Notes under the pieces: generated by a model | The model's database searches: none | Seen by the model: only the letters and a program-made list of their open reading frames with translations | Told to the model about the DNA's origin: nothing | Shown: piece by piece, positions 5,307-39,445 of the stretch | How the letters are laid out: every line of letters begins with the position of its first letter | Numbering within the stretch: the first letter of the stretch is position 1 | Translations under genes and position numbers: made by a program | Assembly (NCBI RefSeq): GCF_001677475.2 | Contig: NZ_CP015229.1 | Strand: one strand, 5' to 3' | From: Escherichia coli | Lineage (GTDB): Bacteria > Pseudomonadota > Gammaproteobacteria > Enterobacterales > Enterobacteriaceae | DNA length: 64,000 nucleotides

Positions 5307-6032
5307 TTAATGCAGGATTTTCGCGAGGAAGTCTTTTGCGCGGTCCGATTTCGGATCATCGAAGAAAGCGTCTTTCGGCGAGTCTTCGACAATTTTACCC
5401 TCGTCCATAAAGATCACCCGATTCGCCACTTTACGGGCAAAGCCCATTTCGTGGGTCACCACCATCATGGTCATTCCTTCATTCGCCAGTTCGACCATTA
5501 CGTCCAGCACTTCGTTGATCATCTCCGGATCCAGCGCCGATGTCGGTTCGTCGAACAGCATCGCGATAGGATCCATGCACAATGCGCGAGCGATCGCCAC
5601 ACGCTGCTGCTGACCGCCGGAAAGCTGCGCCGGAAACTTATTGGCATGTGCGGAAAGCCCGACGCGCTCCAGCAATTTCAATGCTTTTTCACGAGCGGGT
5701 GCTTTATCGCGTTTAAGCACTTTCACCTGCGCCAGGGTCAGGTTTTCAATAATCGACAAATGGGGGAACAACTCGAAATGCTGGAACACCATTCCCACAC
5801 GGGAACGCAGCTTCGCCAGATCGGTTTTCTTATCGTTCACCACGATGCCATCGACGGTGATTTCACCTTGCTGCACCGGTTCGAGGCCGTTAACGGTTTT
5901 AATCAGCGTTGATTTACCGGAGCCAGATGGGCCGCAAACCACCACCACTTCGCCTTTTTTCACTTCCGTTGAGCAGTCGGTCAGCACCTGAAAGTGACCA
6001 TACCATTTTGAAACATTTTTCAGGGTAATCAT
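5307..6032 (-). CDS. gltL: Glutamate/aspartate ABC transporter ATP-binding protein
   Basis: 241 aa, Walker [13 protein letters not shown] signature LSGGQQQR. Confidence 0.9.
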
Positions 6033-6706
6033 TATGCTGTCCTTCTTTTCAAGTAGCTGACCAACAACGACGCGCTAAGGCTAATAACGAAATAAACAAA
6101 TCCGGCAAACAGGATCATCTCAACCTGCGTACCATCACGCTCACCAATGGTTGAGGCGGTACGGAAGAAATCGGCCAGAGATAACACATACACCAGTGAG
6201 GTATCCTGAAACAGTACGATGCCCTGAGTGAGCAGCAGCGGCACCATCGCGCGGAACGCCTGCGGCAGAATAATCAGTTTCATCGACTGCCAGTGGGTCA
6301 TCCCCAACGCCAGCGCGGCGCTCGACTGACCACGAGAAATACTTTGAATACCGGCACGGATAATCTCTGAATAGTAGGCCGCTTCAAACATCGAAAACGC
6401 CACCATCGCCGAAATTAAACGGATATCATTTTTTGGTGATAATCCCAGCACGTTTTGCAGAAAACCCGGCACGATCAGGTAAAACCACAGCAAAACCATA
6501 ACTAAAGGAATCGAGCGGAATACGTTAACGTAGGCTTTGGCAAACCACGCTACGGGCGCAAAGCTGGACAAGCGCATCACCGCCAGCATGGTGCCCCACA
6601 AAATACCAATCACGACTGCCGTGACGGTGATTTTCAGGGTGATCACCAGCCCGTCGAGCAGATATGGCAGGGAAGGAACAATGGAACTCCAGTCAAACTC
6701 GTACAT
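6032..6706 (-). CDS. gltK: Glutamate/aspartate ABC transporter permease
   Basis: 224-aa polytopic membrane ORF overlapping gltL start; synteny. Confidence 0.9.
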
Positions 6707-34523: not shown

Positions 34524-34553
34524 AAAAGGGCGGTCAGAAGATCGCCCTTTTTT
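34524..34553. terminator. Bidirectional terminator between pgm and potE
   Basis: Hairpin AAAAAGGGCGGTCAGAAGATCGCCCTTTTTT. Confidence 0.7.
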
Positions 34554-34564
34554 ACTTTGCTTTA

Positions 34565-35884
34565 TTAACCGTGTTTATTTTTCAGTTCAAAGCGTGGTGA
34601 GACCAGACCATACAGTGTCCAACCGAGGAAGGTCACGATGGAACCGTATAGCATGGCTTCTTCCCCGGATGAGTACAGCGCATAAAAGCTGTACATCGCG
34701 CCAACAAAAGCAACAAAGTTTGCAACTTTCGCTTTTGAGGGGGGCACATTAGCGACCTTCTGAATAATGACTAATGCCGCCATTGACAGAATATACGGAA
34801 TGATATTGGTCACCACGGCCAGGTTAACCAGCACGTTGAACTGACTGTTTAGCGACGGGCTAATCGTCATCAGCGCCAACCCGCTCTGGATAATCACAAT
34901 GGTCAACATTCCCTGCACCGGTGCATCCACTTTGGTTACACGGGAGAAAATTTTAGGGAAGTAGCCTTCATCAGATGAAGATTTAAACACCTGGGCAATG
35001 GTGAACTGCCAGCCAAGCAGCGAACCGCAGCAGGACATCACCATCAGCGCCATAATGACTTTACCCACTTCTGGCGTGAACATCTGTGCGAAGGCCAGGC
35101 CAAATGGTGCCGTTGAATTTGCCAGCTCCATATTAGGCACAATCCCTGCAATCACGTTGGTGGAGACGATATAAATCACCGCCGCACCTAACGTACCGCC
35201 GAGTACCGCGATTGGCACATTACGTTCCGGGTTTTCCACTACATCAGTATTCGCACACGCAGACTCCAGACCAAGAAAAGCCCACAGCGTCATAGCGATG
35301 GAAGAACCTACCGCACTGAAGAACGGTGCATGATGCGGATTCCAGGAATCAACGTAAAGCGTCGGGCTAAACCAGAACCAGCCGATAACGCACAGGCCTA
35401 CCACCGGAATAATGACCCCCCACACGGTAATGCTACTGATTTGCCCGGTAATGCGCGCACCACCAAAGTTAGCCACGGTACAAATCCACAGCACCCCGAT
35501 GGTCGCAAGACCAATCTGCACTGGCGACAAACTCGCGCCGAGCAGTTCGGTGCCGTAACCAACCGCCGAAATAGCAATCGCGACGTTAGCAATCAGCAGT
35601 GAGACGCCGTAGGTATAGTTCGCCATAAAGTTACCGGATTTACCGAAAGCATACTCGGCATAACCGCCCATACCACCTGATTTACGGCTGAACATACCGC
35701 ATTTTGCGAATGCCCATGCCAGTGCCATTGAGCCTACGGCTGTCACCAGCCAGGAAATAATTGAGATTGTCCCGACTTCGGCAAGCTTTGTCGGCAGCAT
35801 GATGATACCGGAGCCCATCATGTTGACCATCGTCAGTATGGTTAACTGAACGACGCCCATCTTATTCGATTTAGCCTGACTCAT
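34565..35884 (-). CDS. potE: Putrescine/ornithine antiporter
   Basis: 439-aa APC-family transporter; overlaps speF stop. Confidence 0.9.
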   Translation of the reverse strand: MSQAKSNKMGVVQLTILTMVNMMGSGIIMLPTKLAEVGTISIISWLVTAVGSMALAWAFAKCGMFSRKSGGMGGYAEYAFGKSGNFMANYTYGVSLLIANVAIAISAVGYGTELLGASLSPVQIGLATIGVLWICTVANFGGARITGQISSITVWGVIIPVVGLCVIGWFWFSPTLYVDSWNPHHAPFFSAVGSSIAMTLWAFLGLESACANTDVVENPERNVPIAVLGGTLGAAVIYIVSTNVIAGIVPNMELANSTAPFGLAFAQMFTPEVGKVIMALMVMSCCGSLLGWQFTIAQVFKSSSDEGYFPKIFSRVTKVDAPVQGMLTIVIIQSGLALMTISPSLNSQFNVLVNLAVVTNIIPYILSMAALVIIQKVANVPPSKAKVANFVAFVGAMYSFYALYSSGEEAMLYGSIVTFLGWTLYGLVSPRFELKNKHG

Positions 35885-38079
35885 AATTTTTCCCCTTTCA
35901 ACAGGGTGCTTTGCGCATCACGAGGCTTGATGACATAGCACCAAACTTGCTTACGACCATCATGTTCTTCGATATAGACACCCTGCAGCTCTGGTGCAAA
36001 ACCTGGCAGCAGGTTGATCCCTTCTTCCAGAGCGCTGAAGTAACGCAGAACAGCACCACCCCAGATTTCACCCGGAACAACACACAGCACACCCGGAGGA
36101 TAAGGAAGCGCACCTTCGGCAGCGATACGGCCTTCTGCATCCGGCAGACGAACCAGCTCCACTTCACCGCGTAAGTAGGCGTAGTTGGCTTCTTGCGGAT
36201 TCATGCTGACGCGTGGGAAGTGTTCCTTACGGAACATCTCTTTTTGCAGTTGTTTCACGTTGTGACGGGCATACAAATCATGCATTTCCTGGCACAACTG
36301 ACGCAGGGTATAACCGGCGTAGCGCTCTTCATGCTGTTTGTAGATGGAAGGCAGTACTTCCGCCAGAGGCGCATCAGCTTCCAGTAGTTTTTCGAAGCGT
36401 ACCAGCAGGGCAACAAGTTGCTGCAGTTTGGCCATATCTTCTGCCGGAGTCAGCAGGAAGAGGATGGAGTTAAGATCGCATTTTTCCGGCACTACGCCAT
36501 TTTCGCGCAGGAAGTTAGCAAGAATCGTTGCGGGTACACCGAACGCTTCATATTCGCCGTTACGTGCATCAATACCTGGAGTTGTCAGCAACAGTTTGCA
36601 CGGATCGACAAAGTATTGGTTCTCTGCGTAGCCTTCAAAAGAATGCCAGTGCTCACCGGGTACAAATTTAAAGAAGCGTAGATCAACCGCAATTTGCGCT
36701 GTTTCATACGACTGCCAGGGTTTACCATCCACCAGTTCAGGAACGAACGGGCGAATGTGCTGGCAGTTATCGAGGATCAATTTGCGGGCATTAATACCGT
36801 TAACCACACAATCCATCCACATATTACGACCGCTGACACCTTCATGCATTTTAGCGTTGATATCCAGTGCGGCAAACAGCGGATAGAACGGGCTGGTGGA
36901 GGCGTGCATCATAAAGGCGTTGTTCATGCGTTTGTGCGGTACATAACGCTGTTGCCCTTTGATATGGCTGTCTTTTTTATGAATTTGTGAAGTCTGAGAA
37001 AAACCAGCCTGTTGTTTATGCACAGATTGCGTAACCAGAATACCCGGATCGTTCTCATTAAGCTCCAGTAGCAGCGGCGAACAGTCCGCCATCATCGGAA
37101 TAAACTGTTCATAGCCGACCCATGCTGAGTCAAACAGGATGTAGTCACACAGATGACCGATTTTATCCACCACCTGGCGGGCGTTATAAATAGTACCGTC
37201 GTAGGTGCCTAACTGAATCACAGCGAGGCGGAACGGACGCGCCTCTTTTGCCCGTTGCGGTGCAACTTCTGTAATCAGTTCACGCAGATAACTTTCTTCG
37301 AAGCAGTGCGCATCAATGCCACCGATAAAACCATACGGGTTACGTGCTGTTTCCAGATAAACCGGTGTTGCACCAGCCTGTAGCAAGGCCCCGTGGTGGT
37401 TAGACTTATGGTTATTGCGGTCAAACAGCACCAGATCACCCGGTGTCAGCAGGGCGTTTAAAACCACTTTGTTGGAAGAGGAGGTGCCGTTTAAAACAAA
37501 GTACGTTTTATCGGCATTAAACACTTTAGCCGCATGTTGCTGTGCAATGCATGGCGCACCTTCATGAATCAGTAGATCGCCCATTGCAACGTCGGCATTA
37601 CACAAGTCGGAGCGGAAGAGCATTTCGCCAAAATATTCCACGAACTGATTGCCTGCCGGATGGCGACGGAAAAACTCACCTCCCTGATGACCCGGGCAGT
37701 CAAAAGCGCTATTGCCCTGATTGACATAATCGACCAGTGCGCGGAAGAAGGGCGGGCGCAGTTGCGTTTCATAATGGCTGGCAGCGGTTTCTAACTGACG
37801 TCCATAAAACTCTTTCCGTGATTCGCAATGCTCGAAGACACCCGAAATACGGGGCAAATACTCTGCGGGTACACGTTCTTCATTTTCCGTTGCAATAAAA
37901 ACAGGAATGCCATAGCCAGTAGCGTCTATTTCATCGAGTTTTCCACGTTCAACATCACTGACTGATAAAATAATGGCGGCAACGTCAATATAATTACTTT
38001 TGTCAATATTCACGCATTCACGATGAGTGGAAAAACAATCCGGGCAAGAACGGCTAACGGCAATTTTTAATTCTGACAT
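35881..38079 (-). CDS. speF: Inducible ornithine decarboxylase
   Basis: 732 aa from MSELKIAV; PLP-dependent fold-I decarboxylase. Confidence 0.9.
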   Translation of the reverse strand: MSELKIAVSRSCPDCFSTHRECVNIDKSNYIDVAAIILSVSDVERGKLDEIDATGYGIPVFIATENEERVPAEYLPRISGVFEHCESRKEFYGRQLETAASHYETQLRPPFFRALVDYVNQGNSAFDCPGHQGGEFFRRHPAGNQFVEYFGEMLFRSDLCNADVAMGDLLIHEGAPCIAQQHAAKVFNADKTYFVLNGTSSSNKVVLNALLTPGDLVLFDRNNHKSNHHGALLQAGATPVYLETARNPYGFIGGIDAHCFEESYLRELITEVAPQRAKEARPFRLAVIQLGTYDGTIYNARQVVDKIGHLCDYILFDSAWVGYEQFIPMMADCSPLLLELNENDPGILVTQSVHKQQAGFSQTSQIHKKDSHIKGQQRYVPHKRMNNAFMMHASTSPFYPLFAALDINAKMHEGVSGRNMWMDCVVNGINARKLILDNCQHIRPFVPELVDGKPWQSYETAQIAVDLRFFKFVPGEHWHSFEGYAENQYFVDPCKLLLTTPGIDARNGEYEAFGVPATILANFLRENGVVPEKCDLNSILFLLTPAEDMAKLQQLVALLVRFEKLLEADAPLAEVLPSIYKQHEERYAGYTLRQLCQEMHDLYARHNVKQLQKEMFRKEHFPRVSMNPQEANYAYLRGEVELVRLPDAEGRIAAEGALPYPPGVLCVVPGEIWGGAVLRYFSALEEGINLLPGFAPELQGVYIEEHDGRKQVWCYVIKPRDAQSTLLKGEKL

Positions 38080-38388
38080 TTTGTTCATCTCTTTATTTCA
38101 GGTAATAGCAGGTCCTCAATTTCTCAAAGGAGAAATTGATCACGCCGGAAAAAAAGCAAAACCCACCGCTGATAAATAAATCAGTAGTTTGCTTTTTGCA
38201 GATGCAATAACCCAGACCAGCCCGGTAACTGGCTATACTCGTCATACTTCAAGTTGCATGTGCTGCGACTCGAATTATTTAGAGTTTAAAAGGGTTAGCA
38301 GTATATGAGCACCGAGGGATACAGGTATTAACCTGTAATGCTTAAAGTCAGGGAGACCTGTACGCTGAGGTGCCCTTTAGTCAGAAGA

Positions 38389-38493
38389 CTAGCGGGCATT
38401 AAAGAAATGAAAGTCAAAACTATTACGATGTGCAAACTTCATGATATGGGTTGTCCGCCTTATATGAGGCATTAAGCGGTTATTATTTTCCAT
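38389..38493 (-). CDS. speFL: speF leader peptide SpeFL (ornithine-sensing arrest peptide)
   Basis: 34-codon ORF MENNNRLMPHIRRTTHIMKFAHRNSFDFHFFNAR about 300 nt upstream of speF; matches the recalled SpeFL sequence at all but two positions. Confidence 0.7.
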   Translation of the reverse strand: MENNNRLMPHIRRTTHIMKFAHRNSFDFHFFNAR

Positions 38494-38767
38494 TTACCTT
38501 TACCTTTTTCTGTGTCAGTTGAAGGTAGAGTTATTCTATCCATGAAATGGCTATAATCTGTGAAGAAGATCAACAAAAAACGATCATATCCCAAATAATA
38601 AATCATTAATGATGAATAGCGCCATATTAGATGCTGTTTTGTTGTTTAAATGTTGCAATTTTGTGGGTTGTATTTTCATTAAGAAATTAAACCTGCCAAA
38701 TAATAATTTTCGGGGCAGGTTTAATAATAAATTAATAATTATTTAAGCGTATTTATTGAATAATAAT

Positions 38768-39445
38768 TCATGGCATAAACCGATACCCAATACCGGTTTC
38801 AGTAATAAAATGGCGGGGGCGGGCGGGATCTTGCTCCAGTTTTTGTCGCAGATGCCCCATATAAATACGCAAATAATGACTGTGTTCGACCGCGTTTGGC
38901 CCCCACACCTGGTTAAGGAGCTGGCGCTGGGTGAGCACTTTTCCCGCATTATTAAGCAACACTGCCAGCAGGCGGAACTCAATCGGGGTAAGATGCACCT
39001 CTTCCTCGCCCCGATGGATCACACGAGCTGCTAAATCGACGGTAACATCGGAAAATTTCACCAGCGGATCGGGCGCGGTGGTGGCAGAGTGGCGGCGTAA
39101 AGCGACGCGCAGACGGGCCTGCAATTCGCCAATGCCAAATGGTTTACTCAGGTAATCATCCGCTCCGGCATCCAGCGCGGCGATTTTGTCGCTCTCTTCG
39201 CTACGTGCGGAAAGCACAATCACCGGCACTGCGCTCCACTGGCGCAGGTCGCGGATAAACTCAATCCCATCACCGTCGGGCAGGCCGAGATCGAGAATAA
39301 TCAAATCTGGCTTACGGGTTGCCGCTTCCAGCAAGCCGCGTTGCAGCGTTTCGGCCTCAAAGACGCGCATACCGTCGCCCTCCAGCGCCGTGCGCAGAAA
39401 GCGACGAATAGCCTGTTCATCTTCAACAATCAGAACGTTTGTCAC
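38768..39445 (-). CDS. kdpE: Response regulator KdpE (OmpR family)
   Basis: 225 aa, receiver domain plus winged-helix; overlaps kdpD stop. Confidence 0.9.
   Translation of the reverse strand: MTNVLIVEDEQAIRRFLRTALEGDGMRVFEAETLQRGLLEAATRKPDLIILDLGLPDGDGIEFIRDLRQWSAVPVIVLSARSEESDKIAALDAGADDYLSKPFGIGELQARLRVALRRHSATTAPDPLVKFSDVTVDLAARVIHRGEEEVHLTPIEFRLLAVLLNNAGKVLTQRQLLNQVWGPNAVEHSHYLRIYMGHLRQKLEQDPARPRHFITETGIGYRFMP

Follow-up and report, generated by a model that had tools for sequence, protein, structure and literature searches.

The 34-codon open reading frame (ORF) at positions 38389..38493, on the minus strand of the window (the whole 64,000-nucleotide stretch of E. coli DNA that was analysed), is almost certainly speFL, which encodes the leader peptide of the speFL-speF-potE operon, and it has the form found in most E. 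coli. The element is already known, well characterised and routinely annotated, and the allele found here is common and intact.

Identification of the ORF

In the ORF listing of the window, the frame runs for 34 codons from an ATG to a TAG stop and encodes MENNNRLMPHIRRTTHIMKFAHRNSFDFHFFNAR; the original prediction had given its coordinates and peptide correctly and had left out the strand. Among all PDB chains searched with phmmer, the sole match of the peptide was the SpeFL chain of 6TBV/6TC3 (E = 1.7e-18), whose sequence, MENNSRTMPHIRRTTHIMKFAHRNSFDFHFFNAR, is also that of the K-12 b4803 product. The two peptides share 32 of 34 residues, namely 1-4, 6, and 8-34, and the changes are S5N and T7L. 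This alignment bears out the earlier proposal of two N-terminal differences, with S5 and T7 as the K-12 residues, and of a conserved C-terminal arrest region; divergence from the published SpeFL, on which that proposal had been staked, comes down to 2 residues in 34. The likeness to the K-12 gene extends to the locus between kdpE and speF, the length, the UAG stop and the AGG-CGG pair at codons 12-13.

Family assignment and annotation agree with this identification. The peptide reaches 27.9 bits (E = 2.1e-6) against Pfam PF10940, the SpeFL family, formerly DUF2618, whose gathering score is 25, and no NCBIfam model matches the 34-residue peptide. The RefSeq annotation of strain SK1144 has at the equivalent position the entry 'speFL: leader peptide SpeFL' (WP_001312672.1), with the same translation, and the exact window peptide is found in UniRef and, under the SpeFL name, on at least 1000 contigs of the public protein collection. 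The supposition that ORFs of this size are routinely missed by gene callers does not hold for speFL, as PGAP labels it 'leader peptide SpeFL' throughout RefSeq E. coli.

Conservation of the Peptide and Its Codons

In the published system, residues 1-13 of SpeFL form a sensor hairpin, in which the HIRRXXH motif and 23S rRNA trap a single L-ornithine, the segment 14-34 packs around F26 together with F20, F28, F30, and F31, and N32 displaces U2585, so that RF1 is blocked at the UAG codon; the stalled ribosome hides a Rho-loading site, which allows transcription into speF, and the rare arginine codons 12-13 stop ribosome queuing at low ornithine (10.1101/604074). The window peptide has all the functionally required residues (H10, I11, R12, R13, H16, F26, F28, F30, and F31), as well as other residues reported as contacts (E2, N3, P9, F20, R23, N24, N32, and A33). 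Its N-terminal hairpin, residues 1-7, reads MENNNRL, with conserved E2 and N3. P9 directly precedes the ornithine-recognition motif HIRRTTH at codons 10-16 (38446..38466, minus strand), identified from the sequence with roles taken from 10.1101/604074, and codons 11-13 (38455..38463, minus strand) are ATA AGG CGG, with the rare Arg codons 12-13 in succession. The effector part holds the Phe core F20, F26, F28, F30, and F31 and ends with N32-A33-R34 before the stop.

How the family varies was determined by a degenerate-codon DNA scan for PHIRRTTHIM, with one genome per species, which yielded 72 loci, nearly all of them in Enterobacteriaceae. Each of the 71 complete ORFs, from as many enterobacterial species, has exactly 34 codons. 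The scan pattern encoded residues 9-18, and the invariance of P9 and of the HIRRXXH columns in the 71 species is therefore by construction. AGG CGG at codons 12-13, as in K-12, is the commonest form among these species, and so is ATAAGGCGG. Positions 5 and 7 rank among the most variable columns of the family, with N in 52 species and S in 19 at position 5, and L (34), T (12), M (9), A (5), I (4), V (3), S (2), and F (2) at position 7; the representatives of protein clusters (1.8 billion proteins) show the same pattern at both. The contacts with the ribosome and the ligand listed for the SpeFL cryo-EM structure include neither residue (10.1101/604074). The window carries the majority residue at each position, which reverses the view of its peptide as a K-12 variant: the family consensus is N5 and L7, which belong to the majority E. 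coli allele, and S5 and T7 belong to the minority.

The nucleotide differences between the two E. coli alleles are distributed as in a constrained coding sequence. Of the 105 nucleotides of the ORF, 15 differ between the window and K-12, and they fall in 11 codons with synonymous and 2 with non-synonymous changes, which indicates selection on the peptide. All ten changes over residues 8-34 are synonymous; by chance this outcome would have a probability of about 1e-6, if roughly 1/4 of random changes are assumed to be synonymous. That residues 8-34 have undergone synonymous change only, while the non-coding surroundings are 78-82% identical, argues that speFL is more than a chance ORF, as do the phmmer E-value and the length fixed at 34 codons in all 71 species.

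The speFL-speF-potE Operon and Its Surroundings

The gene downstream of the ORF, on the same strand as had been proposed, is speF (35881..38079, minus strand), which encodes an inducible ornithine decarboxylase of 732 residues from its conserved ATG and matches TIGR04301 at 1435 bits (cutoff 1310). The distance from the speFL stop, predicted at about 300 nt, comes to 300 nt when counted to the first in-frame ATG (38086..38088) and to 309 nt when counted to the conserved ATG (38077..38079), which is the start used in RefSeq, in K-12 and in 66 other species. The longest speF ORF accordingly runs over 35881..38088 (minus strand) and has 735 codons for amino acids instead of 732. Its extra ATG lies 9 nt 5' of the conserved start and arose from a 2-nt insertion relative to K-12; its use is unlikely, given a position only 1-2 nt after the Shine-Dalgarno sequence AAAGAG (38089..38094, minus strand). 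The second gene of the operon, potE (34565..35884, minus strand), was identified from its ORF and from synteny with the K-12 and CFT073 annotation, and it codes for the putrescine-ornithine antiporter.

The gene order is that of E. coli, hscC...nag...glnS...fur...pgm-potE-speF-speFL-kdpEDCBA-rhs. Two features of the flanks may be mentioned. At ~34525..34555, the window is without about 1.66 kb found in K-12 between pgm and potE, a segment made up of ybfP and the ybfG and ybfI pseudogenes. On the other side, just 3' of kdpE, an inverted repeat, AAACCTGCC...GGCAGGTTT, occupies 38681..38754 (minus strand) in a stretch that is largely replaced in K-12. It has a sub-threshold match to Rfam STnc370 (26.9 bits vs 54) and is possibly the terminator of the kdp operon.

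Sequences Upstream of speFL

A Shine-Dalgarno-like AAGGT (38502..38506, minus strand), whose function is proposed from its sequence, lies 8 nt 5' of the speFL ATG, and a further AAGGT lies 2 nt 5' of it; an AAAGG/GAAAGG block in front of the ATG is conserved in most species. A generic promoter scan gave no promoter near the ORF on the speFL strand, and the putative -10 hexamer of the speFL-speF-potE promoter, TAGAAT (38533..38538, minus strand), is therefore proposed on the strength of conservation across species: a -10-like GGATA(A/G)AAT occurs at a nearly constant distance from the speFL ATG in about 70 species. This hexamer would put the transcription start about 32 nt 5' of the ATG. In Salmonella, transcription starts 31 nt before the orf34 AUG (PMC6386406).

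Two further features were noted in this region. The sequence TTGATC-N4-TTCACA at 38559..38573 (minus strand) is likewise conserved in about 70 species at a nearly constant distance from the speFL ATG. Its centre, ~40 nt 5' of the likely start, is at the position of a class II activator of the FNR/CRP type, which makes it a candidate site. Expression of speF is induced under anaerobic and acid conditions, which such a site would fit. In addition, a 44-residue ORF (38472..38606, minus strand) overlaps the start of speFL and the putative promoter. PGAP lists it as 'hypothetical protein' WP_001295874.1 in strains of the window type, it is unannotated in K-12, it has no Pfam match, and it is probably a spurious gene call.

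Predicted RNA Structure of the Leader

Codons 33-34 and the UAG stop are predicted to fold into the hairpin GCCC-GC-UAGUC-UUCU-GACUA-AA-GGGC (38372..38398, minus strand), with -17.4 kcal/mol and z = -3.5. This hairpin also comes out of the predictions for K-12 and for most of the 66 distinct species sequences, and it matches, at the level of a fold prediction, the published RNA-polymerase pause hairpin. RNAalifold found no consensus structure in the short alignment of the stop hairpin, in which several genera are out of register. In a count of pairs, 68.3% of the alignment cells of the hairpin were paired, against 66.5% in shuffles, and one pair was altered on both sides; the stem is mostly invariant in sequence, and its two outermost pairs were mis-registered in the structure string used for that count. 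A second local hairpin, UACAGGU-UAAU-ACCUGUA (38320..38337, minus strand; z = -3.2), has the K-12 counterpart ACAGGC..GCCUGU, so that one C-G pair there is a U-A pair in the window. The loop of the equivalent hairpin holds ERIC-type insertions in Salmonella and in some Citrobacter.

Minimum-free-energy folds of the whole leader (z = -5.0) contain in addition a second helix, which begins just 3' of the stop hairpin, and a long-range helix, also predicted in the K-12 leader. The 5' arm of the latter consists of speFL codons 24-32 (38400..38422, minus strand) and its 3' arm covers the speF Shine-Dalgarno sequence, the extra ATG and the conserved ATG (38068..38095, minus strand). The predicted fold matches the architecture published for Salmonella, where the pairing between the 3' part of the speFL orthologue and the speF ribosome-binding site was tested by mutation (PMC6386406). 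A candidate Rho-loading site is suggested by a composition bias of C over G that extends from the middle of the ORF to about 120 nt beyond the speFL stop, its sole support. A scan found no intrinsic terminator on the speFL strand, and no Rfam family reached its gathering score over 37500..39000.

An ERIC Repeat in the Spacer

The spacer between speFL and speF harbors a short, internally deleted ERIC repeat (38232..38288, minus strand), which was recognized by its match to ERIC ends and corresponds to positions 1-26 and 91-129 of a full ERIC located in the dxs-yajO spacer. The full copy includes a one-mismatch version of the ERIC2 primer site; the spacer copy is without the ERIC core, and an E. 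coli genome has about 5 copies related to it. The K-12 leader has no ERIC. The resulting 51-nt insertion at about 38232..38288 explains why the spacer is 52 nt longer in the window (309 nt) than in K-12 (257 nt). In the predicted fold, the repeat forms a hairpin of its own and the long-range helix stays intact. The Rfam family isrH was considered for 38234..38290 and rejected, because the Rfam score was 24 bits against a threshold of 45 and the matching segment is the ERIC fragment.

In 66 other species, the spacer measures 197-381 nt, with a mode of 253-257 nt and longer classes of 304-309 and 366-381 nt. A divergent insertion occupies the site of the window ERIC in E. albertii, full ERICs are found elsewhere in the leader of some Citrobacter and Kluyvera, and in the arizonae and diarizonae subspecies of S. 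enterica a 122-nt insertion in the hairpin loop, away from the window ERIC site, brings the spacer to about 379 nt. The leader 'ring' thus tolerates repeated insertions of the ERIC type. No relevant paper came up in a literature search that combined ERIC with speF.

Allele Classes in E. coli

Among 5426 complete E. coli genomes, about 3335 (about 61%) match the speFL segment of the window at 95% identity or more, about 1704 have a K-12-type speFL (80-90% identity to that segment, about 85%), 24 match it in part only, and 383 have no match to it. The K-12 sequence is thus the minority form of speFL. Divergence between the window and K-12 peaks sharply at ~37000..38770, over the speF promoter, the leader and the beginning of the speF gene: the flanking genes are 96-99% identical, and identity is 86% at 37500..38000, 82% at 38000..38500 and 78% at 38500..39000. 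The two leaders are about 82% identical and the promoter-proximal DNA about 78%.

The leader of the window is nearest to those of E. albertii and strain E69 (87-90%), whereas that of K-12 is 82.5% identical to the window and about 84-85% to Citrobacter, a marginal difference in favour of the latter. These leader identities are ambiguous as to whether the K-12 leader was imported from Citrobacter. For the speF coding sequence, such an import is not supported: the K-12 and window alleles are 92.7% identical and each other's nearest relatives, and their identities to C. braakii are 80.3% (K-12) and 82.1% (window). The divergent segment may go back to an old polymorphism or to an import. The two diverged control regions might be non-neutral, setting different thresholds for ornithine, pH, or anaerobiosis or serving different conditions, and might be kept by selection or by targeted recombination, a suggestion that we regard as improbable. 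Across 18 kb of core genes, none of the 5426 complete genomes exceeds 98.2% identity to the window, and across the 24 kb around speFL, which include the Rhs region, none exceeds 97.7%; judged by these values, the lineage is E. coli-like and not closely represented among complete genomes.

One window-type leader has a shortened speFL. In the uropathogen CFT073 (NC_004431.1), a 63-nt in-frame deletion inside speFL leaves a 13-codon ORF, MENSFDFHFFNAR, from which the ornithine-sensor domain is gone. The remnant lies at 5995..6036 of the CFT073 locus, is homologous to 38389..38493 of the window, and is labelled by PGAP as a partial TonB-dependent receptor pseudogene. The 24 genomes of the 5426 with partial matches set an upper bound, and no more than that, on deletions of the CFT073 type.

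Proposed Mechanism and Related Systems

The experiments on arrest and regulation, by toeprinting, cryo-EM and reporters, were performed with the K-12 peptide and a 257-nt spacer or with orf34 of Salmonella (10.1101/604074; PMC6386406), and we infer from the sequence that the mechanism may be carried over to the window allele. Nascent SpeFL in the exit tunnel would trap one L-ornithine against 23S rRNA by means of its sensor (residues 1-13, with the motif at 10-16). Compaction of the Phe-rich effector (residues 14-34) would then displace U2585, and RF1 could not release the peptide at UAG. Stalled and queued ribosomes would mask the Rho-loading site overlapping the speFL 3' end, letting transcription continue into speF-potE, and the stalled ribosome would also open the long-range helix in which speFL codons 24-32 pair with the speF ribosome-binding site. 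When ornithine is absent, the ribosome would terminate, Rho would load, and transcription would end just past the stop-codon hairpin. Slow decoding of AGG-CGG at codons 12-13 would keep ribosomes from stacking and may link the system to arginine supply.

The K-12 leader shares with the window the predicted stop hairpin and long-range helix. In Salmonella Typhimurium, orf34 is an orthologous 34-codon leader with the same predicted architecture, in which Rho-dependent termination follows the stop hairpin and a helix sequesters the speF ribosome-binding site. Rho ends transcription there just past the hairpin containing the stop of orf34, whose 3' part base-pairs with the speF ribosome-binding site and whose Arg codons tie the system to arginine supply; the stop is UGA, not UAG as in the window (PMC6386406). 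Unlike the window, the arizonae and diarizonae subspecies of S. enterica have F7 and M19 (MENNNRFMPHIRRTTHIMMF...). TnaC, the leader peptide of tnaCAB, which responds to tryptophan, follows a logic similar to that of SpeFL, in that a free amino acid is sensed, a release factor is blocked and a Rho site is masked (10.1101/604074). Its sequence is however unrelated, it uses another ligand and another tunnel site, its release at UGA depends on RF2, and it is not a member of the family.

Alternative Explanations

That the frame arose by chance in AT-rich intergenic DNA, the real gene being the overlapping 44-residue ORF (38472..38606, minus strand), has a negligible probability. Many small ORFs occur here on both strands, and PGAP annotates the 44-residue one in window-type strains; it nonetheless lacks both a Pfam match and a K-12 annotation, and it covers conserved promoter elements 5' of the likely transcription start. 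The speFL frame, in contrast, keeps its length and conserves its sequence across 71 species and has changed only synonymously over residues 8-34. It is also very unlikely, if somewhat less so, that the window allele is homologous to speFL and impaired, or regulates differently, owing to S5N and T7L or to the ERIC repeat and the divergence of its leader. The N-terminus does matter, since deletion of residues 1-7 abolishes arrest by K-12 SpeFL (10.1101/604074), the leader is 52 nt longer than the tested K-12 leader and about 82% identical to it, so that its quantitative behaviour could differ, and natural loss of the sensor does occur, as CFT073 illustrates. However, the 71 species have N5 and L7 as their consensus, the reported contacts with the ribosome or the ligand include neither, the allele is common (about 3335 of 5426 complete genomes), the ERIC repeat is a self-contained hairpin in a predicted fold whose long-range helix is unaffected, and in Salmonella, where regulation has been demonstrated, the spacer is even longer (about 379 nt).

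A more serious contender, though still a doubtful one, is the model of Ben-Zvi, in which the ORF would mainly sense arginine supply, and pausing at AGG-CGG would decide whether the mRNA adopts an RNase G-sensitive or an RNase G-resistant fold. The model was tested in Salmonella, and the same source reports positive regulation by ornithine (PMC6386406), so that sensing of arginine would be an added layer and not an alternative. Moreover, cryo-EM has located ornithine bound by the HIRRXXH motif of SpeFL (10.1101/604074), and a demonstration of RNase G dependence for the E. coli leader is absent both from 10.1101/604074 and from PMC6386406. The ornithine-sensing leader peptide SpeFL is thus the reading that we retain for the ORF.

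Implications

The laboratory sequence of K-12 is a minority form at positions 5 and 7 of SpeFL, and every published E. coli experiment used a leader, with 257 nt and no ERIC, that is unlike the one of most natural E. coli. The sensor domain of speFL is gone from at least one model uropathogen, CFT073, and to describe the window allele as intact is thus informative. These differences in allele and leader, together with the loss in CFT073, bear on the extension of the ornithine-sensing results obtained with K-12 to clinical strains.
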